DNA of 64,000 bases from Opitutaceae bacterium (GCA_017994935.1 JAGOJU010000016.1:3232-67231); one strand, 5' to 3'. Numbered from the stretch's first letter, positions 8,980-48,186 are shown. Notes: generated by a model not told the origin, from the sequence alone. A program made the numbers and translations.

Positions 8980-9071
<92 letters not shown>

Positions 9072-9748: not shown

Positions 9749-12664
9749 TCAGAAGGTGAACCGATTGGTCAGGATCCATTCCCGCGGGTCGTTGAAGCGA
9801 TAGTTCAATGTTTCGCCTGCCGTGTTCTGGCGAAGGACCACGTAGCGGTCGTTGTCGAAGAGATTGTTGATGTTGAGCTGGATCGACCAGGTGACGCCTC
9901 GGCGCAGCAGGTTGAGTTTACGCCGGTAGCCGATATTGATATCAGCGAACACCTGGCGCGGCCCGTAGGCCACGACGGGGTCCGATGTCAGCGTGGCGGG
10001 TGACACGAAACGAACGATGGGACGGTCCGTCCATCGTGTGGCACCGCCAATACCAATGCCCTTTAGCGGCCCTTTGACGAAGTCAAATGATGTCCGGAAG
10101 TTCAGTTTCTGCGGAATCTGGCCGAGTGGACGTCTGCCGTCGGCGAGTGTGACATTGTTCAGGAGGGCGGTATCGATGACGTCGAGCTGTTCGGCAATCG
10201 TGTCAACGGTCGTGTTGCCGTCGCGCTCCTGCGGTGCGAGACCGACTCCCCGGCCGGGGAGGTAGAGCCTGCCGCGATTGCCCTCGGTCCAATAGCCGCG
10301 CTGCCTGGCAATATAGTTGACGAGTTCCGGAGCGATGTGAGTGCGGGCTGTCTTGGTGCGGGAATAGTTCAGGAATATCCGCCAACTCGGAGTAGGATTG
10401 GCGGTGAGATCGAGTTCGTAGCCCTGCGTGCGCGATGCAAACGTTGCTCCGGCCAGGACATCACGCGGGGAGATGATGGGAGCGTTGGTGAGGGGATCGG
10501 GGATTCCGTTTGCGGCAAGGGCATCCCAGATGCTGTTGACGCTTGCCTGGGAGACCGGCGGTGAGAAGTCGAAGTCGTTCGCGGCGGTCGTCTGGAAGTA
10601 CAGGGCCGAGACGAAGAGGCGCTTTTCAAAGAGATCGAGTTTGAAGCCAAAATCCTCACTCTTGCCTTCCGGCCGGGGCGGGCGCTGGTTGGGCCGCGTG
10701 CCGTCGGCGGAGGGAATCGATGATGTCGCATTGGGCAGGCCGCTGTTCTGCGCCTTGCTGAAGGTGAGTCCGAGCCATCGTGTGGCGTGAAAGACACCGC
10801 TGAAGGTGATGTTTTGGGCGGACGAATCCGAGCCGGCATGATCTCGAACAGGTGTGAGAATGCCGTTCGTGAACCCGGTGAGCGGGGTGCGGGCCAGAGT
10901 GGAGTTGTAGGCGGTTCGTTCGTCGCGGCTCATGCCTGCCACGGTGTTGATGCGTCCGCTCCAGAACGCGCTTTGCAGAAGGCCGATGGCGGTCGTGCCT
11001 TCGGTGGATGTGAACTGGGTCGAGTTGCCGAAGGGAAGCCAGGATGTCTGGTAGGTGCGGCCGCTCACCGGATCGGTGAGTCCGGAGGTTTCGGCAAGCC
11101 GCCAGTCGGCCAGCACGATGCTGTCGGATGGACCGTCGAGGTTGACGTAGGTGCGCCGCCAGATGCGGTTGTTGTTGTTTTCCGGGGTTACGAGGTTTGG
11201 TGCGTTGGAGGAGGTGACGAATTCCCGGAGTTGCACGCCGGTCATCTTGTCGAAATTGTATTCCACGACGCCCGCGAGTGTGTGGGTTCCGAAAATTTTC
11301 CCCAGACTGAATTTGTAGCTGCCGCTCGCTCTCACGGCGTCGGTCCGGGAGTCGCGGAAATTGCGCTGCGTCTGCGCCTCGAGATAGGCGCGGCCGACGT
11401 TGGGATTGGGCGCGCCTGTGGGGAGGGTCGGACCCGGGTCGGCACGCAGAAACTGGGAGATGTTCTGTTGCGCGTCGACGTTGAGAAAGTGATCGTCGAG
11501 TCGCATCGCCGCGACCTCAATGTTGAGGGCAGGTGTGAACGCGTGAGTGAGGAAGGCGGTCAGCCGGGTTGACTTGTTGTCCTGCCCCATGCCGTCGCCG
11601 AGGATGGCCGTCTCGCGCGGCAGGACGGAGAAGTCGGTGAGCGTCGGGTCACCCCCGACGACTCCGCGGGCGCTGGTGCGCATGGATGCGGACCTGTTCA
11701 TCAGCGTGTGCGAGTCGGAGTCGAAAACCAGCCAGGTGGTCGCGGCATTCGCGGTGCGCTCGATCGTGGGAACCGCGGTGGCTGAGACCGGTTTGCCCGC
11801 GGCGGCCCATGGAGTGTAGGCATCGAGCGCAGTGAAGGTGCGGTTCGCGCGACGATGGGAACGGCCCGTTTCGGCCTCGGCATTGATCTCGGTCTTTGGC
11901 GACAGCCGGAATTTCGCGGTGCCGAAGAAACGATCCTCGTCGCTGAACTGGTGGTTGCGCCATGAATTGGCCCGGCCACTGACCGCGGCGATGCGGAAGG
12001 CGAGGCGATCGCGGATGATGACGTGGTTGTGGTCGCCTTCGATCCTCGTGCCGCCGTAGGAACGAACCTGACCCGAAACGACGCTGCTGTTGGCATTGAG
12101 GCGGGCACGCTTGGTCGTCGCGTTGATGATGCCCCCGGGATTTCCGACGCCGAAAAGAATGGCGTTTGGTCCGCGCGCCTGGTCCACGCGCTCGAGACTG
12201 AAGGCGTTTCCACGACCGCCCGTCCGGAAAAAGTTGGTCGTCACCTCACCGCCGCCGAGCCCGCGCATGCGCAGCGGGCGCGCCGTGCCCGAAAACAGGC
12301 GGTTCTGCCCGCCGGCGTCCTCGCCGAAATCATACTCGGTGCTGAGCATGTAGCGCGCGAGTTCATCGGTGTCGGTGATTGCCGTATCGAGGAGGAATTG
12401 CTCGGTGAAGGAGGAGGTCGGGGACGCGATGTCCTTCAGGGCGGTCTTTATCCGGCTCCCGGTGAGCGCGCTCTGCGCCTGATAGCCGCGGTCCTCTCCC
12501 GCATCGACAACGAAAGGGGTGAGTTCAACGATCGCCTCCTCTTCGGACGGGATTTGTGCGGCTGATGAAGTCGTGCTGGGCGCCGGCTCCGCCGCGAACG
12601 CGAATGGAGCCGCACCGATCAAGGCGAACCGCAAGAGGGGGTGAAGAGCAGGGGCGTATTTCAT
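9749..12664 (-). CDS. TonB-dependent outer-membrane receptor
   Basis: Signal peptide MKYAPALHPLLRFALIGAAPFAFA. Plug-like N-terminal region. Long beta-barrel-type sequence ending in the aromatic terminus LTNRFTF. ATG 12664 has AGGAG 6 nt upstream. Confidence 0.85.
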   Translation of the reverse strand: MKYAPALHPLLRFALIGAAPFAFAAEPAPSTTSSAAQIPSEEEAIVELTPFVVDAGEDRGYQAQSALTGSRIKTALKDIASPTSSFTEQFLLDTAITDTDELARYMLSTEYDFGEDAGGQNRLFSGTARPLRMRGLGGGEVTTNFFRTGGRGNAFSLERVDQARGPNAILFGVGNPGGIINATTKRARLNANSSVVSGQVRSYGGTRIEGDHNHVIIRDRLAFRIAAVSGRANSWRNHQFSDEDRFFGTAKFRLSPKTEINAEAETGRSHRRANRTFTALDAYTPWAAAGKPVSATAVPTIERTANAATTWLVFDSDSHTLMNRSASMRTSARGVVGGDPTLTDFSVLPRETAILGDGMGQDNKSTRLTAFLTHAFTPALNIEVAAMRLDDHFLNVDAQQNISQFLRADPGPTLPTGAPNPNVGRAYLEAQTQRNFRDSRTDAVRASGSYKFSLGKIFGTHTLAGVVEYNFDKMTGVQLREFVTSSNAPNLVTPENNNNRIWRRTYVNLDGPSDSIVLADWRLAETSGLTDPVSGRTYQTSWLPFGNSTQFTSTEGTTAIGLLQSAFWSGRINTVAGMSRDERTAYNSTLARTPLTGFTNGILTPVRDHAGSDSSAQNITFSGVFHATRWLGLTFSKAQNSGLPNATSSIPSADGTRPNQRPPRPEGKSEDFGFKLDLFEKRLFVSALYFQTTAANDFDFSPPVSQASVNSIWDALAANGIPDPLTNAPIISPRDVLAGATFASRTQGYELDLTANPTPSWRIFLNYSRTKTARTHIAPELVNYIARQRGYWTEGNRGRLYLPGRGVGLAPQERDGNTTVDTIAEQLDVIDTALLNNVTLADGRRPLGQIPQKLNFRTSFDFVKGPLKGIGIGGATRWTDRPIVRFVSPATLTSDPVVAYGPRQVFADINIGYRRKLNLLRRGVTWSIQLNINNLFDNDRYVVLRQNTAGETLNYRFNDPREWILTNRFTF

Positions 12665-12752
12665 GAAAACTCCTGACAGACTGTCCTGGGGGCTGGGGTT
12701 GTCTGCGTTTGCCACCCCTCGCGGGGGGCGGTGCAGGTTCCACCGACAATAA

Positions 12753-12842: not shown

Positions 12843-14390
12843 TCAATTCCTGATGGTCAGAGGCGTGATCGTATTGCAGCCGCCGTTGTAGAAGCCGGCC
12901 GGACCGGGTGTCCTCACGAACTGCTTTTCACTATCGTCCGGTTTGCCGGGACCGTATCTGCCGGCATTGTTCATCCAGTCGCGTACATCGGGCCATCCAA
13001 AGTCGGGCACAGGCTTGCCATTGTTCTGGTATTTCGCCTCGGGTGGAGGTGTCGTCGAGGTGCTCCACACAATATTGTTCACACGGAGATTGTCGGGATC
13101 CTGCTGGTCTGCGGGGACGCACCCGAGGAAGTTGGCAATTCCGATGCCGGCATTGCCGTTGTCATTGATTCCAGGAGTCGCCATTCCGCTGATAGAGGGG
13201 GCTTCCGGATGCCTGCCCCAGATCGGCTGAGGCGTGATCAGGGGATCCATGTCGCGGGGATTCATCCGGGACATGTCCACATTGTTCTTGGCCGCGTGAA
13301 CGTAGGGATTCCAGTAGTTCAGGTGGTACACATGCAAGGACATCGGGAGGATGTCCCGCACCTTTCTCATCTCCACATAGCATCGGTAAAGGGCTCCCCG
13401 CGCGGGTCCCTGGGATGCCGGCGGACCAGGTTCACGCGGGAATGTGTCGGGCCCGCAGATGCCCCCGCCGCCCGGAAGGCCGGGCAGCCCGGGCAGTTGG
13501 CTCGCGGGTTCCGGATGGGTGGGCTTGTTCAAGAGATGAGCGATGATCGTCGTCACCTCACGGGTCGGTGAATTGATCATCTGCCAGAACAGCCGGTGTG
13601 GTGTGGCGCTGCGGACATCGAAGTCGCGCAGCCTTCCCGGCGCCCATTTCCATTGTCCATCCCGTGGGTCAAGCTCGCGTCCGGCCAGCCAGAGGTGGAA
13701 TCTTTTCAGATTGTAGATCCATTTCTCCCGGGTGACCGGAGTCCAGTACGTGCTGGTCCCGACTTCGTGTTCCTGAATGACGAATCCGTAGAATCCACTG
13801 ACGGCCTCCGGGGATTTCTGCAGTTCCGAGATGACCTTTTGATACAGGGCTTGGAGGAATCCGAGAACGACATCCTGGTCCAGTTTGATGTTCGCTGTTT
13901 CCCCGCGTTTGCCCGTGGCATATTTCCCGTCGTTGGCGGTGAGGAATGCCGGCAGCGTGGTGAACTTGTGGGCGATCATGACCCTCAGTTTCAGTCCGGC
14001 CCTTTCACAGGCGATCGCCTCCTGGACAATGCGACCGATTCCGTTTCCAGGGTTCCCGGGCGTGCCCACCTTGAAGGGCCCGGGGGTGTTTCCGCTCCCG
14101 CTTCCCTGAAGTTCGCTCCAGGAGTAGTCGCGTTCGATGAAACGCATCCATGATCCCGTTGCCTTGCAATCCTTGATGAGACTCTCGATCGAAACATGTC
14201 GCACGCCTGAAGTCCGGTCGGTGAGCCCGTGTCCGGGCATGAACAAATAGTCCGACTGCGCGCTGGACGCGGGCTGGGCGAGAGGCATCAGCAGGCAGAG
14301 GGCGCCCAAAATGCCTGATGCGAACCGGAATCGGAGCGAACCGTGCAGGCTGGCGGCACCGGTGGATCGGAGGAAACGGGGAATCTTCAT
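12843..14390 (-). CDS. Secreted hypothetical protein, 515 aa, possibly a glycoside-hydrolase-like TIM-barrel protein
   Basis: Signal peptide MKIPRFL...LLMPLAQPASSA. The N-terminal half resembles GH42/DUF4874-style barrels (RDYSWSELQGSG..., AGLKLRVMIAHKF). Internal Gly/Pro stretch PGLPGLPGGGG. ATG at 14390; the upstream in-frame extension is not protein-like. The family call is weak. Confidence 0.5.
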   Translation of the reverse strand: MKIPRFLRSTGAASLHGSLRFRFASGILGALCLLMPLAQPASSAQSDYLFMPGHGLTDRTSGVRHVSIESLIKDCKATGSWMRFIERDYSWSELQGSGSGNTPGPFKVGTPGNPGNGIGRIVQEAIACERAGLKLRVMIAHKFTTLPAFLTANDGKYATGKRGETANIKLDQDVVLGFLQALYQKVISELQKSPEAVSGFYGFVIQEHEVGTSTYWTPVTREKWIYNLKRFHLWLAGRELDPRDGQWKWAPGRLRDFDVRSATPHRLFWQMINSPTREVTTIIAHLLNKPTHPEPASQLPGLPGLPGGGGICGPDTFPREPGPPASQGPARGALYRCYVEMRKVRDILPMSLHVYHLNYWNPYVHAAKNNVDMSRMNPRDMDPLITPQPIWGRHPEAPSISGMATPGINDNGNAGIGIANFLGCVPADQQDPDNLRVNNIVWSTSTTPPPEAKYQNNGKPVPDFGWPDVRDWMNNAGRYGPGKPDDSEKQFVRTPGPAGFYNGGCNTITPLTIRN

Positions 14391-14921
14391 GGACGCGGTG
14401 GTCGTATCCGTTTCATCGGAATGGCAGGCCGGACTTCCGCACTCCGCAGAGCGGCGTGATGCGAGCGAGGCTTTCATTTCGGGAGGATAGGATTTGAGCA
14501 ACGTGTCCCTTCGCGTAGCGCGGGGAGGGGCGATGTTGCCTTGGAGGTGTTGGTGGTTGCGGAGCGACCTGAACGCGCATCCTCGCCTGCCGAGTGAAGT
14601 TCGGCGGAATCCGACCGGGGCCGGATTCATGCGAAGACACGCCTCGCGATATTAGGGATCAGAGCGGAGGCAACAATCCACGGAAACGCGTGGGGCACGC
14701 ACCGACCCTGCGCAAAGGAGCTTCCCTGCCGGGAAATGATGTTGCCGCCCGGGGCTGCGATCCTTGCAGCCCGGCAGGCATGTGCCATTCGCTCAGGGGG
14801 CAAATGCGAGCGAAGGGCACCCGGGGTGGTTTCGCCACCCGGTGGACTGTCCGGGTGACCTTCTGATTTGGATCGACGACGGCGTCACTTTGCGGAGGTT
14901 TGTTCCACCTCGATCCCTCCG

Positions 14922-21067: not shown

Positions 21068-21634
<567 letters not shown>

Positions 21635-21832
21635 GGCAGTCGGGGTTCGATACCACTTGCTGTGACGCCGGTCAAGCTGACCGAGAAGGACGGAATCACC
21701 AAAACGCAAACGAGTATACCAGACCAAGCCTGTGCGCACAGGGTTGCGGCCTGATGCGCGCGGTTGCATTTCGTTCCGGGACGCTTTGCCTTGAAATGTC
21801 CACTGTCCGCTGACGATCTTCCGAAACCCAGC

Positions 21833-22150
21833 ATGTCGATCAAACGCGATCCCCGACCTTCCGTTTCTGCCTTGCCGCCCGGTTCAGGTGCTGCCGTGGT
21901 CGACACGGGTTTCATCCCGGTTCGTGCCAAGCTTCTGGAGGTTGCGGCCTTTCTGGACCGGGTCGAACGGCATTCGGTGGCGGACGATTTTCGTTGCGAG
22001 GCCCTGAGGGAGGCTGCGCGGCTGCTGGTTGACGGGAGGCCTGAGCGTGCGCGGCGCATCCTGGAAAAACTGAGCGATCCGACCACGGAACCGGAGGCAA
22101 TCTCATCCGGCAAGGCGGCGCTGGGGGCCTGGCGTCCCGTGCACAAATAG
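21833..22150 (+). CDS. Small hypothetical protein at the eboA position of the ebo-type cluster
   Basis: ATG 21833, 105 aa (…[27 protein letters not shown]…). Ends 9 nt before the TatD-like gene. Homology to EboA not verified. Confidence 0.45.
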
Positions 22151-22159
22151 GAAATTGCC

Positions 22160-22975
22160 ATGCGTTACATTGAACCGCACGGCCATATGGTGAGCCGGAC
22201 AACCGATGATTACCAGGCCATGGTGGCCGCCGGGTGCGCGGCCGTCTGTGAGCCTGCCTTCTGGGCCGGGTATGATCGCGGGTCGGTGGAGGGCTTTCGC
22301 GATTATTTCAGGCAGTTGACGGAGTACGAACCGGCGCGTGCGGCGAAATTTCTGCTGCCGCACTATGCATGGCTTTGTCTCAATCCGAAGGAGTCGGAGG
22401 ATCTCCGTCTCGCCGCCGATGTGCTGGCGATGATTCCCGAATTCCTCGGGAGGAAGAACGTGCTCGGCATCGGCGAGATCGGCCTGAATCGCAATACACG
22501 CAACGAGCTGAAGGTCCTTGAACAGCACGTCGAACTCGCGGTGAGGCATGACCAGCTCATCCTCGTGCACACCCCCCATCTGGAGGACAAGAAAAAGGGG
22601 ACGCAGCTGATTGTGGACCTGCTTCGATCCCACCCGGGTGTGAAGCCGTCGCGGGTGATCATCGATCACGTCGAGGAGCACACTATCCGGCAGGTGCTCG
22701 ACCGGGGCTACTGGGCTGGCATCACGTTGTATCCCGACTCGAAATCATCGCCGCCGCGCGCGGTCGACATGCTTGAGATCTGCGGCCGCGACCGCATCTG
22801 GCTCAATTCCGCATGCGACTGGGGTGTCAGTGATCCGCTGGCCGTTCCCAAGACCGCGCTCGAAATGCGCCGACGGGGTTATGATGCGGAATTCGTCGAC
22901 CAGGTGCTCTACCAGAATCCGCTGCGTTTCCTTTCGCAGTGTCCCAAGTTTTTCGTCAGCCAGTCTGCCGGATGA
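22160..22975 (+). CDS. eboB: TatD-related metal-dependent hydrolase (EboB-like)
   Basis: Amidohydrolase-fold N-terminal HxH ([10 protein letters not shown]), [16 protein letters not shown]. The stop overlaps the next start (ATGA at 22972-22975). Confidence 0.7.
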
Positions 22976-24186
22976 AACTCAATCACGGGCTCCATCTGGC
23001 CTATTGCACGAATGTCCATCGAGGCGACACCTGGGAGGAAACCTGGCGCGCGCTCCGGGAGCATACTCTTGCGGTGCGACGCAGGGTGGCTGCGGGCCGG
23101 AGTTATGCGATCGGCCTGAGGCTCAGTCACCGCGCGGCGTGTGAACTCTCGCTGGGTGACAACCTGGACGCCTTTCGGCGCTGGATGGATGCGGAGGACT
23201 GCTACGTTTTCACCATCAACGGATTTCCCTACGGAAGCTTCCACGGCTCGCGAGTGAAGGAGCAGGTCTATGCGCCCGACTGGTCCACACCGGAGCGGCT
23301 CGACTACACCTCCCTTCTTTTTGAACTCCTGGTGAAGCTTGTGCCCAGGGGGGCCTCCGGCAGTGTCAGTTCGGTGCCCGGCTCCTTCAAGCCCTGGATC
23401 GTGCTCGATGCGGAAAGAAGAGCGGCCATCTTCAGAAACCTGACTGCGGCCGGCAGGTACATTGCGGAACTGGCGGACCGATCGGGATGCGACCTCCACC
23501 TCGGCCTTGAGCCGGAACCCTGCTGCCAGTTTGAAACGTCGGAGGAGACGGTTAAATTTTTTGATGCGTGGAGGGCATCGGATGCCGCAGTGGTTGCTGA
23601 CAACCTTCTGAAGCGGGTCGGAGTGAACTACGATTGCTGCCACCTTGCGGTGGAGTACGAGAATGCCCGTCCGGCGCTGGACCGCCTGCGTGCGGCCGGA
23701 CTTCGCCTGAGCAAACTCCACATCAGCTCGGCGCTGCGACTGCATCCCGACGAGGATGGTCTGGCGGCCCTGGCGAAATTCGATGAGCCGGTCTATTTCC
23801 ACCAGGTCGTTGTGAATGACACGCGAACCGACAGGATACGCCGGTACGTGGATCTCCGGTATGCCCTGGTGGATGCGGAAGGCTACCTGCCGGACAAGGA
23901 ATGGCGGGTCCACTTTCACCTGCCGCTTCACGCGGCCCCGGGTAGTCCATTCATGGATACGCGTGAGCACGTGCTTGAGGCCTTTGACTGGATGGCCGGG
24001 AATCCGGGGGTGATCGAGCATGCCGAGATGGAAACGTACACATGGGAGGTGCTTCCTCCTGGGTTGCGCATCGGGATCGAGGAGCAACTGGTGCGCGAGT
24101 ATGCGTGGACCCTTCGAGGCCTGGCCAGCCGGGGACTGGCGGAAGAGACTCTCGCCGCCACCGTGGAAGCGGCCCGCCGCTTGTGA
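22972..24186 (+). CDS. eboE: Xylose-isomerase-like TIM-barrel protein (EboE-like)
   Basis: [23 protein letters not shown]... TIM-barrel-type sugar-phosphate isomerase/epimerase-like sequence. ATG at 22972. Confidence 0.65.
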
Positions 24187-24929
24187 TGACGCTTGCGGAG
24201 AAGCCCGTCCGAAGTCCGTTTGGAATCTGGCTCGACCTGTCGCGAGCCGGCAATTTTCCGTCGATCTGGAGCAATGCCCTTGCGGCACTCGTCATCTCCT
24301 CACCTGAGGCAGGCGTGTTCCCATTGGCGGGGATGACGGGGCTCGTTTTCCTCGCGGGCAGTCTGGCCTATGCGGGCGGCACAACGCTGAATGATGTGGC
24401 GGATGTCGAGTTTGACTCGATCCATCGCCCGGAGCGCGCGATACCCCGCGGCCTGGTGGCGCGAGGGACTGCGGCATGGCTTGGTTTTGGGCAGCTTTTC
24501 ATCGGGCTTGGACTCCTGATATTTGCGGGGGCCTCATCCCTGGCGGTGCTTGGGCTCGGCGGCGTTATTGTCGCGTATGACTGGCTCCACAAACGTTGGT
24601 CCGGTTCGGTAGCGCTGATGGCCGGGTGCCGGATCATGCTGGCGGTTTCAATTGCAACACTGCCGGGGCAGCTGATGCGCATGCCCTTCCTTCTTTGGCT
24701 GGCGGGTCTGTTCCTCTATATCGTGATTCTAAGTGTGCTGGCCCGGCGTGAATACCGTCCGGGTGCGTCTTCGGAGAGGCTGGGCAGGGTGGTCCGGCGC
24801 CTGCTGGCGTTCATCCCGCTGGTCGACGCCATCGCGCTGGTTGTCACCATGGCCTGGATACCGGCTGCCTGCTGCCTGCTGGCGGTGCCGCTTGGCCGAT
24901 GGGCGCAGCGCCTTGCAGCGTCGAGCTGA
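24186..24929 (+). CDS. eboC: UbiA-family prenyltransferase (EboC-like)
   Basis: Polytopic membrane protein with the UbiA motif NDVADVEFDSIHRPERAIPRG. Its ATG overlaps the preceding stop (TGATG at 24184-24188). Confidence 0.75.
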   Translation: MTLAEKPVRSPFGIWLDLSRAGNFPSIWSNALAALVISSPEAGVFPLAGMTGLVFLAGSLAYAGGTTLNDVADVEFDSIHRPERAIPRGLVARGTAAWLGFGQLFIGLGLLIFAGASSLAVLGLGGVIVAYDWLHKRWSGSVALMAGCRIMLAVSIATLPGQLMRMPFLLWLAGLFLYIVILSVLARREYRPGASSERLGRVVRRLLAFIPLVDAIALVVTMAWIPAACCLLAVPLGRWAQRLAASS

Positions 24930-25004
24930 GTGCGACATGCCCCGGCCCCTGGCAATGAGGCCTTGCTGTCCACGGGCGGATCTGGACTTAATTCCCATTC
25001 ACCC

Positions 25005-26177
25005 ATGGCAGCGCTTTTGAAATCCGTCTCGCAATCCATTCAGGTGCAGCAGGAGCACCAGCTGATTTTTGCGCGGGATGTATTTGATCCGGCTAGTGAG
25101 GTGCTGGGAAGCGTGCTGACACCGAAGGAGGCGGGTGAGCAGGTGCGCGCGGTGGTCTTCTGGGACCGCGGTCTGGAGAAGGCATTTCCCGGGTATGGGG
25201 CGCGCATTTCCGGATGGTTCTCTGCGCATACGGAGAGCATTCACCTTGCCGCGGCGCCGGTGGGACTTGATGGCGGGGAGAGGGTCAAGAATGAGTTTTC
25301 CCAGCTCGAGCGCATCTGGCGGGTGATAGAATCTGCGGGCCTGTGCCGCCATTCCTACGTTGTGGTGGTTGGCGGCGGGGCGGTGCTTGACCTGGTCGGG
25401 TTTGCAGCGGCCACGGCCCATCGGGGGATACCGCTGATCCGCCTCCCCAGCACGAGTCTCAGCCAGGGAGATGGCGGCGTCGGCGTGAAGAATGGGGTGA
25501 ACTATTTCGGCAAGAAGAACTGGCTCGGTTCGTTCAGTGTCCCTCATGCCGTGATCAACGACCTGTCGCTCCTTCAGGGCCTGCCTGTGCGCGAACGAAG
25601 GGCCGGACTGGTCGAGGCGGTGAAGGTCGCGCTTATCCGTGACGCGGCGTTTTTCGAGTCGATCGCCGCGCAGTCGAAGGAACTGGCCGCGTTTCAGAAT
25701 GCGGCCTTTGAGCGTGTGATCTGCGAAAGTGCCCGACAGCACATCGAGCACATCGCGACAGCGGGGGATCCCTTCGAGCGCGGTTCGGCGCGTCCCCTCG
25801 ATTTTGGCCACTGGTCGGCCCACAAGTTGGAACAGCTTTCACAATTTGAATTGTCGCACGGCGAGGCCGTGGCTGTGGGGATGGCGATGGATATCATCTA
25901 TGCGCGCCGCATGGGGCTGCTCCATCGCGAGGATGCCGACCGCGTGCTCGGGCTCCTGGACGAACTTGGCTTTGAACTTTACTCGCCGCTGCTCGAACTC
26001 CGCGGCCGTTCGGGATCCCGCCTTGTGCTCGACGGGCTCGAGGAGTTTCGCGAGCATCTGGGCGGACGCCTCTCCATCCCGATGATACGGGCGCCCGGTC
26101 AGCGCCTCGAGGTGCATGAGATGGATACGAAATGCGTGGAGGCGTCCATCGACGAGTTGAAGACGCGCCATGGCTGA
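25005..26177 (+). CDS. eboD: 3-dehydroquinate-synthase-like sugar phosphate cyclase (EboD-like)
   Basis: DHQS-superfamily nucleotide-binding region VVVGGGAVLDLVGFAAATAHRGIPLIRLPSTSLSQGDGGVGVKNGVN and metal-ligand His region (GHWSAHKLE...SHGEAVAVG). ATG 25005 preferred; GTG 24930 possible. Confidence 0.75.
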   Translation: MAALLKSVSQSIQVQQEHQLIFARDVFDPASEVLGSVLTPKEAGEQVRAVVFWDRGLEKAFPGYGARISGWFSAHTESIHLAAAPVGLDGGERVKNEFSQLERIWRVIESAGLCRHSYVVVVGGGAVLDLVGFAAATAHRGIPLIRLPSTSLSQGDGGVGVKNGVNYFGKKNWLGSFSVPHAVINDLSLLQGLPVRERRAGLVEAVKVALIRDAAFFESIAAQSKELAAFQNAAFERVICESARQHIEHIATAGDPFERGSARPLDFGHWSAHKLEQLSQFELSHGEAVAVGMAMDIIYARRMGLLHREDADRVLGLLDELGFELYSPLLELRGRSGSRLVLDGLEEFREHLGGRLSIPMIRAPGQRLEVHEMDTKCVEASIDELKTRHG

Positions 26178-27549
26178 GCGCCTTGCGGTACTCAATGTCG
26201 TCGGACTCACCTCGCGCCTCCTCGGCCGGGACACCCCAAACCTGTCGGCGGCTGCCGGGAGTGGCGGAGTAGTTCGCATCAAGCCGGTGCTTCCCGCGGT
26301 CACCTGCACGGCCCAGAGCACCTACCTGACGGGCCTTTCACCTTCCGGACACGGATGTGTCGCCAATGGATGGTACGATCGTGAACTCGGCGAACATCAT
26401 TTCTGGAAACAGTCGAATCACCTCGTCCACGGGCGCAAGCTCTGGGAGACGTTGCGCGAAAGGCGTCCGGGATTCACGTGCGCGAAACTTTTCTGGTGGT
26501 ACAACATGTATTCGAGTGCGGACTGGTCGATCACGCCGCGCCCGATCTACCCGGCCGACGGGCGCAAGGTTTTCGACATCTACACCCAGCCGATGGGCAT
26601 GCGGGAGGAGATCAAGTCGACGATCGGGGAATTTCCCTTTCCCTCATTCTGGGGACCGAGGGCCGGCATCGCTTCATCCGAATGGATTGCGCGCTCAGCG
26701 GAATGGATTGAGGAACGTCACCGGCCGGATCTGTCGCTTGTCTACCTGCCCCACCTTGATTACAACCTTCAGCGCCTTGGGCCGGATGATCCGGCATTGT
26801 GCGAGGATGTGAGGGCGATTGATCGCGTTGCGGGCGGACTCATCGACGGTTTTTCCAGGCGAGGGGTGAGGACCGTCGTGCTTTCCGAATACGGGATCAC
26901 GGCGGTGAAACGTTCGATTGCCCTCAACCGGATCTTTCGTGCGAAGGGCTGGATCACGATCAAGGAGGAATTGGGACGTGAACTTCTGGATTGCGGGGCG
27001 AGCCGGGCATTCGCGATTGCGGACCATCAGGTGGCTCACGTCTACGTGAGGGATGCCTCCATGATCGCCGCTGTGAAGGCGGAGATGGAGGGGATCGACG
27101 GAGTTGCGCGTGTGCTTGCGGCGGATGCACAGCGTCTTGAGGGGATCGATCATACGCGCTCCGGCGACCTGGTTGCCTATGCATCGGAGGATGCCTGGTT
27201 CAACTACTACTATTGGACGGATGATGCCAGGGCGCCGGATTTTGCCCGCTGCGTGGACATACATCGCAAGTATGGGTACGATCCCGTGGAGCTGTTTGTG
27301 AATCCCTCATTGGCGTTTCCGAAGGCCCGCATCGCCCTGAAACTCCTGCGAAAGGCGCTGGGTTTTCGTATGCTGATGGATCTGATTCCGCTGGATTCCT
27401 CCCTCGTGCGGGGATCGCATGGAACGTGTCCCTCGAACCCGGACGAGTGGCCGGTACTGATAGGAACAGGTGGGGCTGAAGGCGATGGTCCGATAGCCGC
27501 CACGCAGGTTCACGGCAGGCTGGTGGAGGCTTGCCTCGGGAGGATGTGA
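26170..27549 (+). CDS. eboF: Nucleotide pyrophosphatase/phosphodiesterase-type alkaline phosphatase superfamily enzyme (EboF-like)
   Basis: LNVVGLT...PAVTCTAQSTYLTGLSPSGHGCVANGWY (Thr nucleophile context) and SGDLVAYA regions typical of type I phosphodiesterase/NPP. Overlaps eboD by 8 nt. Confidence 0.7.
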   Translation: MAERLAVLNVVGLTSRLLGRDTPNLSAAAGSGGVVRIKPVLPAVTCTAQSTYLTGLSPSGHGCVANGWYDRELGEHHFWKQSNHLVHGRKLWETLRERRPGFTCAKLFWWYNMYSSADWSITPRPIYPADGRKVFDIYTQPMGMREEIKSTIGEFPFPSFWGPRAGIASSEWIARSAEWIEERHRPDLSLVYLPHLDYNLQRLGPDDPALCEDVRAIDRVAGGLIDGFSRRGVRTVVLSEYGITAVKRSIALNRIFRAKGWITIKEELGRELLDCGASRAFAIADHQVAHVYVRDASMIAAVKAEMEGIDGVARVLAADAQRLEGIDHTRSGDLVAYASEDAWFNYYYWTDDARAPDFARCVDIHRKYGYDPVELFVNPSLAFPKARIALKLLRKALGFRMLMDLIPLDSSLVRGSHGTCPSNPDEWPVLIGTGGAEGDGPIAATQVHGRLVEACLGRM

Positions 27550-27563
27550 TCACGCCACCGGCA

Positions 27564-29486
27564 TCAGGACGAGGTTCCGCGCAATGGAGGCGCGAGCCTG
27601 AGGTCAGGGAGGGAGTAGAAACGAACCACGGGCCTTTCCCAAAGGGCCATGTCGCCCAGGCTGTCGAGTTCGATCCGAAGTTCTGTCACGGTCGAGCGCT
27701 CGCGTCCCTGCATCAGACCGGCGAAATCCAGGTGATTCTCAATGAATGGCCGGACGATGAATCCGCTTGAACTCTGGGTGGAGATGAGGCGGTACCGCTC
27801 CTCGCTCCGGTCCACTTTTGTCGCCACCATCTGCGGCTGGTAGGCGTGATAGAGCAGCGCGTTGAGGCGTCCGAACCAGGTGGGTGTGAGATCCACCTCC
27901 ATCCAGACAGCCCCGCCGTTTGTCGGTGGCACGCTGAAGCTTTCGCCGAATGCAGGCTGGATAGTGCCAATCATGACTCTGTCTCCGCGCGCGTTTGCAG
28001 GGGGCGCATCGGACGCCTTGCGACGGAGCAGGGCGTGGGTGGGCGTGAGGTCCGCCACCTCGTAGCGTCGCGCGACCTCCAGCAATGCGAGTGAGTCCTC
28101 CTGGCCGGGATACCGCCTGTCGATGGCCTTCAGCCGGAGAACGACAAACTCGGGCGCCTCGCTTGAGGCGTAGAAGGAGGCATTCTTTTCGAGAAGCGAG
28201 CGGGTATAGGCGGTGTAGCTCTGGAAGATCGGACGCGGCCGGTGGCGGATGTGATTCAGGAGCAGAATGCCCTGCTCGTAGGTGAACAGATCCATGCCCG
28301 ACGGGTCCGCTGTTGTCACAAGGTCGACTGCGGCCACCTCCTTTGAGGCCGCAGCCGAGGCGGCCATGAAACGGCTTGTCCACGCATCGAGGTGCGTCAG
28401 CTCATGGGGAAAGCGGGTGATTCGCCTCCATGCGGTCCGTGGCCCAAAGGTCGCAAGAAACGGACTGGTCAGGGCGATGCCTGCAAGGCAGGCAACGATC
28501 GAAAGATCGTGCCGCCATGCACGCTCTGCCGTGGGAATGACCATCGTGAGGATCACACCAAAATACAGGCAGAAGAAAAAGAAACCGAAGACATGATCGT
28601 CAGCGCGGGTGAAGCCCTGTTTCCAGGCGATGAACCATTGGGTGAGGGCAAGCGCGATCATCCCCGTGCGAAGGGCCCGTGAGCCGGCGGAGCGGGCCAT
28701 TGCGATCGTCAGGAGGGCACAGTGGACAATGATCCATGCCGCGACAGCCGCGACCGCACCCGAAGGCTCCACGGCCATGGCCCAGCTGTACCCCTGGCTG
28801 ATTTCGAGGCTCAACCGGAGATACTCCTGCAGATCGGAGATCCGTTGTCCCGCGGCGAGCCAGAAAACGAGAAAGAGGGCCGTGTATCCGAAAAACAGTG
28901 ACAGCGCGACGCGCCACCGTTTCTCCGAAAGGTGGGCGACGCATGAAATCGTCACGCAGCAGAGGGCCTGCATGAGGAACACGAATTTGAAGTGTGAAAG
29001 GAGCCCGAGCCAGATCAGCGCGACCAGGCGCCGCCACCAGGGAACGTCGGAGGGGAGTAGCCACACAAGGCCCAGGAATGCGACTGTCACCGATGCGGTG
29101 TTGTCGAAGAAGGGGGCGCCGATGACAAGAAGACCGAGCAGCAGCCACCGCCTCGGCCCTTGAAATCCCGAGGTTGCTGCCACGAGCGTGCACGCCAGCA
29201 GCAGTTTGCCGATGATCTCCCAGCGGAACTTGATTCCGAGCGCAGCAACCTGATAACCGCTCAGGCTCAGGAATCCCCACGGGCCGTAGGTGAAGGCGAT
29301 CTCCGATCCGAAATGGCGCTTCTGGAGATGGGCATCGACAAGCACGGCATGCCACGATTCGAGCCCGGGGACAGGAGTGCCTGGCAGATGAATGCCTGCC
29401 AGCCAGAGCGCGGCTGTCATCAGGACGAGGAAGGGGAGTTTCGCGCCGGAAAGCCCCGTCAGGGATCCGGCGAAGGGCCGTTGCAT
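27564..29486 (-). CDS. Polytopic integral membrane protein, 640 aa, with ~250-aa C-terminal soluble domain; family unknown
   Basis: About 10-11 hydrophobic segments in residues 1-380 by eye, then a hydrophilic domain. ATG at 29486. Convergent with eboF, with a 14-nt gap. Confidence 0.7.
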   Translation of the reverse strand: MQRPFAGSLTGLSGAKLPFLVLMTAALWLAGIHLPGTPVPGLESWHAVLVDAHLQKRHFGSEIAFTYGPWGFLSLSGYQVAALGIKFRWEIIGKLLLACTLVAATSGFQGPRRWLLLGLLVIGAPFFDNTASVTVAFLGLVWLLPSDVPWWRRLVALIWLGLLSHFKFVFLMQALCCVTISCVAHLSEKRWRVALSLFFGYTALFLVFWLAAGQRISDLQEYLRLSLEISQGYSWAMAVEPSGAVAAVAAWIIVHCALLTIAMARSAGSRALRTGMIALALTQWFIAWKQGFTRADDHVFGFFFFCLYFGVILTMVIPTAERAWRHDLSIVACLAGIALTSPFLATFGPRTAWRRITRFPHELTHLDAWTSRFMAASAAASKEVAAVDLVTTADPSGMDLFTYEQGILLLNHIRHRPRPIFQSYTAYTRSLLEKNASFYASSEAPEFVVLRLKAIDRRYPGQEDSLALLEVARRYEVADLTPTHALLRRKASDAPPANARGDRVMIGTIQPAFGESFSVPPTNGGAVWMEVDLTPTWFGRLNALLYHAYQPQMVATKVDRSEERYRLISTQSSSGFIVRPFIENHLDFAGLMQGRERSTVTELRIELDSLGDMALWERPVVRFYSLPDLRLAPPLRGTSS

Positions 29487-29586
29487 TTGCCGTCCATGCG
29501 AAACAGAGCGGAGGGAAAGGCGAGAACGAATGCGACGATGAAGCGCGGGGTTGCCAGTCCCCGCCGCCTGCTGTTCGGTGGTCCCG

Positions 29587-30735
29587 ATGCCGGACAGCTC
29601 CCACTTTCAACTGCTAGCCACCGACCCCGCCAGCGCTGCGCGGCGGGGAAGGTTGCGCACGCGTCACGGAATGGTGGAAACACCGGTGTTCATGCCGGTG
29701 GGCACCCAGGGAACGGTGAAGGCTGTCACCCCGGCGCACCTGCACGAGGTCGGGGCGCAGATCATCCTGGGAAACACCTACCATCTGAACCTGCGCCCCG
29801 GGAGCGAACTGATCCGCGATCTCGGCGGTCTTCATGCCTTCATGGGATGGGACCGGCCCATTCTCACGGACAGCGGGGGATTCCAGGTTTTTTCGCTGGC
29901 GAAGCTGCGGGAGATCCGTGATGACGGGATTGCATTCCAGTCCCACATTGACGGTGCCCGCCTCTTTCTGGGTCCGAAGGAAGTGATGGCGATCCAGAGC
30001 AATCTCGGCAGCGACATCGCGATGGTCATTGATGAGTGTCCTCCCTGGCCATGTGAGAGGGATGCCTGTGTCGCTGCGGTCGAGCGCAGTCATCGCTGGG
30101 CTGCCCAATGCCGCCAGATCGCCCTCGACAGCGGATTCCTTTCAGCGGGGCATCACGTCTTTGCGATCGTCCAGGGATCCACCTTTGACGACCTCAGGAG
30201 GGAGGCAGCGGAGTCGCTGTCGGCGCTCGATTTTCCTGGCTATGCGGTTGGTGGAGTGAGTGTGGGTGAACCAGAGCCTGAAATGCTGAAGCAGGTGGGG
30301 GCGACAACGCCGCACCTGCCGGTGGGCAAGCCGCGGTACACGATGGGACTCGGTACTCCGCCGCAGTTGCTCAAGATGGTGGCGCTGGGGGTTGACATGT
30401 TTGACTGTGTGATGCCGACGCGGGTGGCGAGGAATGGCCTCGTCTTCACCCCGGATGGGCCCATGAACATCCGCAACGAGCGTTTCCGCAGGGATTCCAG
30501 GCCGCTTGTCGAAGGCCTCGTCAACTATACGAGCCGGTTCTCACGCGCCTATCTGCGCCACCTCCAGATGTCCGGTGAAATGCTCGCGGGGACGCTGCTC
30601 ACGGTGCACAACCTGCATTTCTACCTCGACCTTATGGCCCAGGCTCGCGCCCACATCGAAGCGGGCAGATTCACCCAGTGGAGCCGCGCATGGATCGAGC
30701 GCTATGAGGCCGGCGCCGCGGGCCGTGCGGACTAG
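29587..30735 (+). CDS. tgt: Queuine tRNA-ribosyltransferase (tRNA-guanine transglycosylase)
   Basis: HGMVETPVFMPVGTQGTVK, LTDSGGFQVFSL, FDCVMPTRVARNG. ATG at 29587. Confidence 0.95.
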   Translation: MPDSSHFQLLATDPASAARRGRLRTRHGMVETPVFMPVGTQGTVKAVTPAHLHEVGAQIILGNTYHLNLRPGSELIRDLGGLHAFMGWDRPILTDSGGFQVFSLAKLREIRDDGIAFQSHIDGARLFLGPKEVMAIQSNLGSDIAMVIDECPPWPCERDACVAAVERSHRWAAQCRQIALDSGFLSAGHHVFAIVQGSTFDDLRREAAESLSALDFPGYAVGGVSVGEPEPEMLKQVGATTPHLPVGKPRYTMGLGTPPQLLKMVALGVDMFDCVMPTRVARNGLVFTPDGPMNIRNERFRRDSRPLVEGLVNYTSRFSRAYLRHLQMSGEMLAGTLLTVHNLHFYLDLMAQARAHIEAGRFTQWSRAWIERYEAGAAGRAD

Positions 30736-38472: not shown

Positions 38473-39243
38473 CTACCGCTCAGGATCCACGGGAAGAAAA
38501 CCGAAGCGGGTGAACACGGCGCGGGCGTCGACCCCGGTGAGATAGGTGATCCAAGCCCTGGCAGCCACGGGCTGTTTCGACGAGCGCAGGAGAGCCACAG
38601 GATAGATGATTCGCGGGCCTTCCGCCCGGGGGATTTCGAACGCGATTTTTACTGCCTTCGAGATGCGTGCATCGGTCTTGTAAACGATCCCCGCCTCCGC
38701 GTTGCCCGCGGCAACCGCGGCAAGTGCCGTGCGCACGTTTTCGGTGGGGATGATTTTATGGCGGAGATCCTTCCAGAGACCGGCCTTCTCAAGGAATTCC
38801 TTGGCGTAGATGCCGGCCGGGACGGTTTGAGGTTCAGCGAGCGCGAGACGGCGCACGGATTTTCCGAGAAGATCCCCTGGGCCTGCAAACGATTCGCCTG
38901 CATTGACGGGAATGATGATGACAAGCGAGTTGGATAACAGGGGAAGGCGCACTGCGGGATCGATCAATCCCGCCCTGACAAGCTCTTCCATTTTTGCTTC
39001 ATCCGCCGGGAAGAAGACATCCGCAGGGGCACCCTCCCGGATCTGGCGGGCGAGTGTGCTGGAGGCGCCGAAGTTGAACCGAATCGTGTCGCCAGACAGG
39101 GACTCATACCTTGTGGCGATGGCGGCGAGCGCATCGGAGAGGCTCGCTGCGGCGAAGACCGTGATCTCGGCCGCTCCGGCTGCGGCCAAGGGCAGGTGCA
39201 GTGCTGCGAGAAGACGCAGGAGCGATCGATACGGTGGGCTCAT
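38473..39243 (-). CDS. modA: Molybdate ABC transporter substrate-binding protein
   Basis: Signal peptide followed by [13 protein letters not shown]...[22 protein letters not shown], typical of ModA. No modB or modC adjacent. Confidence 0.8.
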
Positions 39244-39316
39244 CGAAGCTGCTTATTCTGGCAGACATCGCCTCCAGTTCAAGAGCATGGGTTTGGGACA
39301 GGGGAAAGCGGCCGGG

Positions 39317-40126
39317 ATGTGTCGCGGATTGACCCCGGTTCGGACAAGCCCTATGCCTCGACCGATCACAGTGATGAAGATTGACCCGGTAAGAGGCGTG
39401 CTGGAATTGCCGGAGGGGCACAAGAAGGTGCTGCTCCATTCCTGTTGCGCGCCCTGTTCGGGCGAAGTGATGGAGGCGATTCACGCGGCGGGCATCGAGT
39501 ATACGATTTTTTTCTACAATCCGAACATCCACCCCCGGGAGGAATACGAACTGCGCAAGTCCGAGAACATCCGGTTTGCCGAGAAGCACGGGGTGCCTTT
39601 CGTCGATGCGGACTATGACACGGAAAACTGGTTTGTGCGGGCGAAGGGCCTCGAGTGGGAGCCGGAACGCGGCGCCCGCTGCACAATGTGTTTCGACATG
39701 AGGTTTGAACGCACTGCGCTCCATGCCTACGAACATGGCTTTCATGTCATCACCAGCTGTCTTGGGATTTCCCGCTGGAAGAACATGGAGCAGATCAATG
39801 AGTGCGGGGAGCGCGCCGCCTCGCGGTACCCGGGAATGTCCTACTGGACCTACAACTGGAGAAAAAAGGGCGGCGCTGCCCGCATGATCGAAATCTCAAA
39901 GCGGGAAAACTTCTACCAGCAGGAGTATTGCGGCTGCATCTATTCGCTGCGCGACACGAACAAATGGAGGCTCGCGAGCGGACGTGAAAAGGTCGTGAGG
40001 GGTGTCAAGTTCTACGGGATGGAAAATTCGTCGGCCGATGGCGCTCCTCCAAAGGAGGGCAACTCGAAACGCAGGCCCGGCGACGGCACTCCGGGCGGCG
40101 GTACCGCAGACTTCCATCAGACGTAA
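39317..40126 (+). CDS. queH: Epoxyqueuosine reductase QueH (DUF208)
   Basis: [27 protein letters not shown] cysteine motifs. In-frame ATGs at 39317, 39353 and 39374; 39317 has a purine-rich stretch upstream. The ORF-track start 38903 is an antisense-of-modA artefact. Confidence 0.85.
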
Positions 40127-48099: not shown

Positions 48100-48186
48100 T
48101 GGTGGTAGGACCTGGATTCGAACCAGGGAAGGGCAGAGCCCAAGAGATTTACAGTCTCTCCTCGTTGGCCACTTGAGTATCCTACC
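48100..48186 (-). tRNA. tRNA-Tyr (anticodon GUA), CCA encoded
   Basis: Minus strand: acceptor GGTAGGA/TCCTACC, anticodon stem AGAGA/TCTCT with loop CTGTAAA, long variable arm, T-arm CCTGG-TTCGAAT-CCAGG, discriminator A, CCA. Confidence 0.9.

Follow-up and report, generated by a model that had tools for sequence, protein, structure and literature searches.

Bacterial ebo operons are of two types, one carrying EboA and the other an unrelated short protein, EboG (PMC5133447). The second type has been described in the gene orders DGBECF (Deinococcus, Herpetosiphon) and CDGBEF (Acidobacteriaceae KBS 96, Thermithiobacillus) (Table S2, PMC5133447). Verrucomicrobiota are absent from the synteny table of that 2016 study, and some verrucomicrobial sequences appear in its EboF list (PMC5133447). 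The present analysis concerns 64,000 nucleotides of DNA from an Opitutaceae bacterium (GCA_017994935.1 JAGOJU010000016.1:3232-67231), referred to below as the window. Positions 21833-27549 of the window hold six consecutive, tightly packed open reading frames (ORFs) on the plus strand, assigned here to eboG, eboB, eboE, eboC, eboD, and eboF. The block is read as an eboG-type ebo operon, and on balance it is predicted to make a saccharoquinoline- or thallusin-type meroterpenoid from a cyclitol, aspartate, and farnesyl pyrophosphate (FPP). Since the eboG kind was described in 2016 (PMC5133447) and ebo carriage by Verrucomicrobiota was reported in 2026 (10.64898/2026.05.21.724671), the locus is best regarded as an added lineage rather than a new system.

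A preprint of May 2026 has tied the core ebo genes to thallusin and saccharoquinoline (10.64898/2026.05.21.724671). The presence of ebo matched thallusin production in 35 strains from four phyla and in three further cyanobacteria, and L-aspartate was incorporated into the quinoline core of thallusin. In Stieleria, the single deletion of eboB, eboC, eboE, or eboF led to the loss of thallusin, and EboC proteins from three phyla farnesylated an ester of 6,7,8-trihydroxyquinaldic acid. The same work, which used EboA-F of Maribacter as the queries of its screen, reports the four core genes in several orders of Verrucomicrobiota (10.64898/2026.05.21.724671). An EboC homologue, UbiA-297, has also been found to farnesylate 8-hydroxyquinaldic acid (PMC9235831). 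EboD is said to make DEI (Tanoeyadi et al. 2024, as cited in the review PMC12904256).

The window can be set beside several described clusters. The eboABCDEF operons of Bacteroidota, Cyanobacteria, and eustigmatophyte plastids are likewise packed and co-directional, and their EboB to EboF are orthologous to those of the window (21-48% identity to Aureibacter), but the gene order differs and the window has no EboA and instead carries EboG, which is not related to it. The EDB cluster of Pseudomonas fluorescens NZI7, known for nematode repellence, contains six ebo homologues, of which eboC and eboD are required for the phenotype. By description, it holds three additional genes beside its eboA-F homologues, presumably with an eboA among them (PMC12904256), and nothing comparable flanks the window cluster. 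The ebo cluster associated with scytonemin in Nostoc punctiforme shares the core enzyme families (Klicki et al. 2018, PMC6282210). It is of the eboA type, however, and the window is of the eboG type and has no scy genes.

Gene layout and expression

The six ORFs, their common direction, and every junction proposed in the original prediction agree exactly with the sequence. The first gene, eboG (21833..22150), encodes a small protein of 105 amino acids and lies directly upstream of eboB (22160..22975; 271 amino acids), with a 9-nucleotide gap between them when read from the sequence (22150 vs 22160). eboB runs into eboE (22972..24186; 404 amino acids) at an ATGA (22972-22975), and eboE in turn meets eboC (24186..24929; 247 amino acids) at a TGATG (24184-24188). 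A 75-nucleotide spacer, which the original prediction had left out, separates eboC from eboD (25005..26177; 390 amino acids). The last gene, eboF (26170..27549; 459 amino acids), overlaps the end of eboD by 8 nucleotides at 26170-26177 (ATGGCTGA).

Longer starts are available at TTG 21764, GTG 22939, ATG 24042, and GTG 24930, and all were ruled out by the lengths and N-termini of homologues and by the points at which profile alignments begin. For example, the homologues of EboG begin at the same methionine as the start at 21833, and the alignment of EboE (start 22972) to the NF035939 profile begins at residue 9. The median lengths in relatives are 108, 272, 401, 246, 390, and 457 amino acids for EboG, EboB, EboE, EboC, EboD, and EboF; the value for EboC, from 67 relatives, bears on the start at 24186, and that for EboD on the start at 25005.

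The six genes probably form one transcription unit with translational coupling. Judged by its position only, the divergent intergenic region of 63 bp (21770..21832) between a glutamine amidotransferase gene on the minus strand and eboG would hold the presumed operon promoter.

EboG in place of EboA

The 105-amino-acid protein has no match in Pfam or NCBIfam, even at E<=10. It has 753 homologues at E<=0.01, every one of them named "hypothetical," and those with an organism name are all from Opitutaceae. A profile search of 1.84 billion representatives returned 648 clusters (50% identity) at E<=1e-3. With homologues and representative clusters in such numbers, the ORF is a real, conserved gene.

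The original prediction had put this gene in the "A position"; a kinship with EboA was not borne out by the comparisons. Against two EboA-domain proteins annotated by PGAP, hhalign gave a probability of 0.1%, and with no family match either, the assignment to EboA was rejected. No other candidate for an EboA-domain protein was seen among the cluster ORFs. The protein is instead homologous to EboG: it matches an unannotated Deinococcus plasmid gene located between eboD and eboB with a BLASTP E = 2e-10 (43% over 67 residues), and hhalign gives a probability of 96.7% for the same Deinococcus EboG. By this homology the first gene is assigned to EboG, and the cluster therefore to the operon type with eboG that Yurchenko et al. 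described in 2016 (PMC5133447). To make this assignment explicit for Opitutaceae appears to be a modest new point.

With the published type (PMC5133447), the window shares the seven-family repertoire minus EboA, the G-B-E-C core order, an eboG directly upstream of eboB, and an EboB that falls in the G-type clade. It differs in that eboD lies between eboC and eboF, whereas the known type has eboD upstream of eboG, and in an EboC that is about 50 residues, or two transmembrane helices, shorter. A Phycisphaerales metagenome-assembled genome (MAG) has D-G-B-E-C-F, the same arrangement as the Deinococcus/Herpetosiphon type.

The AlphaFold2 (AF2) model of EboG has a pLDDT of 77 overall, rising above 90 in a three-helix bundle at residues 18-80, and a fold search with it returned no PDB match. 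The C-terminal tail (SDPT.EP...GKA..GAW) is modeled with low confidence and is apparently unstructured. It is nevertheless conserved and holds several of the most conserved positions of the family, namely S81, D82, A96, G98, and A99. A single natural fusion was also seen, P0153, a protein of 251 amino acids from a JGI metagenome with an N-terminal GAF domain (PF13185, E = 5.9e-10) and a C-terminal EboG. The fusion is a weak hint that EboG may have a ligand-sensing or regulatory role.

EboB, EboE, EboD, and EboF

The proteins were compared with those of reference ebo clusters on plasmids or megaplasmids of Deinococcus (two), Ketogulonicigenium, Aureibacter, Gemmatirosa, Azospirillum, Streptomyces, Mycetohabitans, and Salipiger, to which the Phycisphaerales MAG was added. 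EboB, EboC, and EboF match the corresponding cluster proteins of each of these genera and of the MAG. Together with the family scores of EboE and EboD given below, these matches uphold the original identification of an ebo cluster, and the window genes B, E, C, D, and F are, by homology, clear Ebo orthologues. Residues that are invariant in each family were defined in alignments with 12-14 reference and related sequences.

EboB resembles the TatD/amidohydrolase-like metal-dependent hydrolases, as had been predicted for the second gene. The Pfam match to TatD (PF01026, 33.6 bits vs a cutoff of 27) is weak and partial, covering residues 72-190, and all 59 family-invariant columns are kept, among them both histidines (H7 and H9) of HxH. 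Its identity to the EboB of eboG-type clusters is 58-62%, and to that of eboA-type clusters 42-46%. In a neighbor-joining (NJ) tree, the window protein grouped with those of Opitutaceae, Deinococcus, Gemmatirosa, and Phycisphaerales and was split from the eboA-type proteins in 200/200 bootstraps, in agreement with the published bipartition of EboB (Yurchenko et al. 2016, PMC5133447). The NJ trees of EboE, EboC, EboD, and EboF gave the A/G split in 0/200 bootstraps. EboB thus appears to co-vary with its upstream partner, A or G, and to be the only protein that does so, a modest new point.

In every locus examined, the gene for A or G lies immediately 5' of eboB. Since EboB alone follows the A/G split and A or G always adjoins it, the most economical inference is a physical or functional partnership of EboB with EboA or EboG. 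From this co-variation and adjacency only, EboG would be an accessory or partner subunit of EboB, a role held by EboA in the other operon type.

EboE matches the NCBIfam equivalog NF035939 (TIM_EboE) with 408.8 bits against a cutoff of 250, over profile positions 1-378 of 379, and keeps all 43 family-invariant columns. The call of a xylose-isomerase-like TIM barrel for the third gene was therefore correct. EboD has both the N- and C-terminal domains of dehydroquinate synthase (DHQS), as expected of a DHQS-like sugar-phosphate cyclase, and all 77 of its family-invariant columns. It passes NF004852 ("PRK06203 3-dehydroquinate synthase") with 518 bits vs a cutoff of 333 and fails the aroB model TIGR01357 with 196 bits vs a cutoff of 305. 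The reference EboDs of the four loci scanned behave in the same way, since all pass NF004852 (455-585 bits) and all fail aroB. In practice NF004852 thus represents the EboD family, to which the window protein belongs, outside AroB, as the original prediction had supposed. Its identity to eight EboDs of reference clusters is 39-48%.

EboF is a nucleotide pyrophosphatase/phosphodiesterase (NPP) of the alkaline-phosphatase superfamily, and here too the earlier call was right. Phosphodiest (PF01663) matches with 201 bits vs a cutoff of 23, the identity to EboFs of reference clusters is 46-58%, and all 96 family-invariant columns are kept, including T45 in the PAVTC motif. A search for solved Ebo protein structures found none, and only distant superfamily relatives have been solved. 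The top PDB match of EboD to a DHQS reached only 125 bits, the nearest solved relative of EboF is the Xanthomonas NPP 2gsn (N-terminal part only), and a sequence search for solved relatives of EboE found none.

A shorter EboC

EboC is a UbiA-superfamily prenyltransferase of short form, with eight predicted transmembrane helices, a PF01040 score of 48.8 bits vs a cutoff of 34.2, and the motif NDVADVEFD. Its best NCBIfam family is EboC (NF035940), with 72.8 bits, which falls short of the 250 that the model requires. So do the scores of the reference EboCs from Deinococcus (96-107 bits), Ketogulonicigenium (79.5), and Phycisphaerales (79); the one protein to pass is that of Aureibacter, from the Bacteroidota, with 342.5 bits. 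The model is narrow, so that failing it is no argument against membership in EboC. The models for UbiA and CyoE score about 30 bits vs cutoffs of 210-275, ChlG is likewise about 30 with cutoffs up to 436, and all equivalogs for UbiA, CyoE, ChlG, and DGGGPS stay at <=47 bits vs cutoffs of 210-494. The earlier suggestion that the protein lies outside UbiA, MenA, and CyoE thus agrees with the family scores.

The unusual feature of this protein is its length. At 247 amino acids, the window EboC is about the size of its 67 relatives in the retrieved loci, which are nearly all from Opitutaceae/Opitutales (median 246), and of most of the top 120 homologues in the database (241-251), but all reference EboCs, A-type or G-type, have 282-322. 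In the alignment, a single gap of about 48 residues directly follows the conserved A(K/R)xE motif and takes away two hydrophobic segments that are present in all references. The motifs common to all reference EboCs (NDxxDxxxD, YDxxHK, CR, A(K/R)xE, and LDA) are intact. The AF2 model (pLDDT 85.3, pTM 0.84) has eight transmembrane helices and matches the folds of DGGGP synthase and AfUbiA structures with a TM-score of ~0.6; a published homology model of EboC has ten helices (PMC9235831). The protein is accordingly placed, by its motifs and family scores, in the EboC group of the UbiA superfamily, with two fewer transmembrane helices.

The short form is common to the 67 Opitutaceae relatives, with 50-87% identity in the clade. 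Because its motifs are intact and the short form is conserved across the clade, the short EboC is very probably functional. The loss of two helices appears to be a lineage-specific feature of Opitutaceae and adds another modest new point. In the EboC of Ca. Salsuginivita brisbanensis (L058), a hydrophilic repeat of the PVAGE type occupies the place where the references have two transmembrane helices and other Opitutaceae a deletion.

Conservation among relatives

Scanning species-representative genomes for EboE gave 80 loci, almost all from MAGs and isolates of Opitutaceae/Opitutales, which were searched with the six proteins by tblastn. The colinear order G-B-E-C-D-F was found in 52 of the 80. 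Another 11 have G-B-E-C only; most of these end at a contig end, and three have more than 7 kb of downstream sequence without D or F. Contig ends also cut short the partial blocks of 7 further loci. One locus is rearranged, that of Ca. Salsuginivita (f-D-G-B-E-c), and nine have eboE alone within +-8 kb, mostly under the names Prosthecobacter or Brevifollis. Because the same colinear block recurs in 52/80 loci, the clustering is more than chance. Clusters occur in other phyla too, and the genes are conserved as a unit across genomes, in keeping with the original prediction. G-B-E-C-D-F would be the norm for Opitutales, a further modest new point. A near relative, L001, has 85-96% amino-acid identity (tblastn) over the ebo genes and the flanking genes, and the same flanks.

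Some of the loci deserve separate mention. In Ca. Salsuginivita brisbanensis (L058:9771-10571), the order is eboF reversed, D, G, B, E, and eboC reversed. The lone eboE homologues of Prosthecobacter, Brevifollis, and other Verrucomicrobia MAGs (L071, L073, L074, L076-L080) have 55-58% identity, which suggests a scattered ebo organization in Verrucomicrobiales, as reported for planctomycetes, in contrast to the operon of Opitutales. Two MAGs labelled Acidobacteria/Acidobacteriota (L060, L061) carry an Opitutaceae-like G-B-E-C-D-F with a short EboC, an EboB of 81-82% and an EboE of 62-64% identity to the window; this points to mis-binning or recent horizontal transfer.

Some Opitutaceae operons have inserts of 2-4 kb between eboC and eboD (L009:11332-12573, L016:4146-5387, L007:10033-13880, L013:10044-12135). 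The insert of L009, and the matching position in L016, holds a DUF4143/AAA_14 ATPase on the opposite strand, and the ORFs inserted in L007 and L013 matched nothing in Pfam. In loci that lack D and F, the genes found downstream vary: one for a TonB receptor in L041, DMFA2-like and ketosynthase genes in L052, and one for a penicillin amidase in L066. An accessory partner gene was looked for in the inserts and where D or F is missing, and was rejected, as no gene is consistent among the loci.

Two clusters from other phyla have additional genes. In the Phycisphaerales MAG (L086:5529-6737), a class I/II aminotransferase gene lies directly upstream of D-G-B-E-C-F, which is suggestive in view of the report that L-aspartate ends up in the quinoline core of thallusin. 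The plasmid of Streptomyces sp. NBC_00663 (L090:963-2162, 11125-12603) carries an ebo-like cluster in which EboA, B, E, and F are accompanied by ino1, an isomerase, and a prenyltransferase of the SCO3242 type; a protein of the ScyD/ScyE family and a multicopper oxidase are encoded on its flanks.

Predicted product and alternatives

The window contains all four genes of the thallusin core (eboB, eboC, eboE, and eboF), plus eboD. On this basis a saccharoquinoline/thallusin-type meroterpenoid is, on balance, the probable product, with the chemistry and the end product carried over from the literature on eboA-type organisms. In the proposed pathway, the cyclitol and L-aspartate would be converted to a hydroxylated quinoline-2-carboxylate by way of EboB as a metal hydrolase, EboE as a TIM-barrel enzyme of the isomerase/dehydratase type, and EboF as a phosphodiesterase. 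The membrane prenyltransferase EboC would then add, and perhaps cyclize, a farnesyl group, and the resulting meroterpenoid would be released as a signal or a metal-binding metabolite. The original prediction had called the product unknown. For the ebo family this no longer holds, given the thallusin link (preprint 10.64898/2026.05.21.724671), and it stands only narrowly, for the eboG type. The prenylated cyclitol lipid carrier that it had presumed is out of date in view of the same link and of the farnesylation of trihydroxyquinaldic acid by EboC (10.64898/2026.05.21.724671).

Several points weigh against a thallusin-type product. The thallusin work, itself a preprint, only postulates what EboB, EboE, and EboF do (10.64898/2026.05.21.724671). 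Its text, which never mentions eboG, names no eboG-type organism among the chemically tested thallusin producers, so that the product is extrapolated across the A/G divide. Three Planctomycetia species in the 2016 table are eboA-type with scattered genes (Table S2, PMC5133447), none of them a tested producer, and a protein search returned Phycisphaerales and other MAGs and no Stieleria or Rhodopirellula. EboC lacks two transmembrane helices that every reference EboC has, and its substrate or product could therefore differ. Also, the source relatives come from freshwater- and soil-type metagenomes rather than algal surfaces, so that a morphogen role for thallusin is not obvious here. A scan for the sigma-70 consensus gave no match in 21770-21832 and none above chance in the region, and terminator and Rfam scans of the cluster gave nothing above chance.

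The most serious alternative, though a rather unlikely one, is that a G-type operon with a short EboC yields a different, though related, prenylated cyclitol or quinoline, whose ecological role in freshwater and soil Opitutaceae would have nothing to do with algal morphogenesis. The product could differ in its prenyl length or lack terpene cyclization or oxidative ring opening. Yurchenko et al. considered that EboA and EboG might yield different products (PMC5133447), and the fully separate G-type clade of EboB, the absence of ~48 EboC residues in all 67 Opitutaceae relatives, and the set of strains tested chemically in the preprint text, with no G-type producer among them, are all consistent with it. 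However, all reference-EboC motifs are kept, and actinomycetes with a quite different cluster make-up still produce thallusin (10.64898/2026.05.21.724671). EboD, EboE, and EboF are not separated by operon type, which suggests the same core chemistry. It is unlikely, too, that the product is distinct from thallusin and EboG acts as a scaffold or regulatory subunit whose tail docks into EboB, with the choice of A or G setting the branch of the chemistry.

Explanations that take the operon out of quinoline synthesis fare worse. A membrane-anchored prenylated cyclitol (phosphate) could carry metabolites over the inner membrane, a mechanism put forward for the scytonemin monomers of Nostoc punctiforme, where deletion of ebo is reported to leave a scytonemin precursor trapped within the cytoplasm (PMC6282210). 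In its favor, EboC is an integral membrane enzyme, and the NCBI name for EboE is still "metabolite traffic protein." Such traffic is improbable, since Nostoc punctiforme itself makes thallusin and its scytonemin phenotype has been read as indirect (10.64898/2026.05.21.724671), and EboC takes soluble hydroxyquinolines and FPP (10.64898/2026.05.21.724671; PMC9235831). In addition, a Pfam pass over the whole 64-kb window showed genes for housekeeping, transport, and regulation, but neither scytonemin genes nor a cargo pathway, in agreement with the original prediction, which had noted none beside the cluster, and the flanks are conserved only in close relatives. A role of EboB as a TatD-type nuclease in self-resistance or DNA repair against a DNA-damaging natural product is very improbable. 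The yatakemycin study puts the identity of YtkR4 to EboB at ~24% and mentions ebo-like clusters with YtkR4/YtkR5 homologues, but the window has no YtkR5-like gene and no genotoxin cluster, the TatD match of EboB is weak and partial, and EboB is required for thallusin synthesis in Stieleria (10.64898/2026.05.21.724671). Finally, the DHQS-like protein might have been the AroB of the shikimate pathway and the UbiA gene one of quinone or heme biosynthesis, clustered by accident, as the PGAP names "3-dehydroquinate synthase" and "UbiA family prenyltransferase" would have it. The proteins do share superfamily folds with AroB and with UbiA, MenA, and CyoE (the DHQS domains of EboD and the UbiA fold of EboC). 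They fall below the family cutoffs (TIGR01357, 196 vs 305; UbiA, CyoE, and ChlG, ~30 bits vs 210-436), however, and lie within a conserved secondary-metabolite operon whose six genes stand together in 52/80 loci and also occur in other phyla, so that this explanation is effectively refuted.

If the thallusin link is true, Opitutaceae would be candidate producers of a cross-kingdom signal active at picomolar concentrations, well away from the surfaces of marine algae on which it was discovered. The family abounds in freshwater and soil, and this exact operon is present in 52 species-level genomes. The eboG-type half of the ebo carriers, which takes in Deinococcota, Chloroflexota, Phycisphaerales, Gemmatimonadota, Acidobacteriota, and Opitutales, is a gap in ebo chemistry. 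Also, the naturally minimized EboC could help to define which UbiA-type helices are needed for prenylation or cyclization.

Flanking genes and the rest of the window

Upstream of the cluster lie ligA, a HIT gene, nrdR, and the glutamine amidotransferase gene, and downstream a gene for a 640-amino-acid membrane protein and tgt. These flanks are common only to the two closest relatives, L001 and L022, and the flanking genes are therefore placed outside the ebo system. The class I glutamine amidotransferase (trpG/pabA-like; 21068-21769, minus strand) is divergent from eboG. The polytopic membrane protein (27564-29486, minus strand) has no Pfam match and is convergent with eboF, 14 nucleotides away. 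A functional link of the ebo genes to either one was rejected, as the adjacency is seen only in L001 and L022.

Elsewhere in the window, two adjacent ORFs on the minus strand (9749-12715 and 12843-14630; 988 and 595 amino acids) have a coding-like GC3 and no Pfam match. A tRNA-Ser(GCT) lies at 8980-9071 (plus) and a tRNA-Tyr(GTA) at 48100-48186 (minus); Rfam at the gathering threshold gave only the first. A chorismate-binding enzyme (anthranilate or aminodeoxychorismate synthase component I; 59593-61077, plus) is encoded 38 kb from the glutamine amidotransferase, so that the pair is split. The tgt gene (29551-30735, plus; PF01702, 499 bits) and a gene for a QueH-domain protein with an N-terminal extension of ~175 amino acids (38903-40126, plus) place two queuosine-pathway genes ~8 kb apart.

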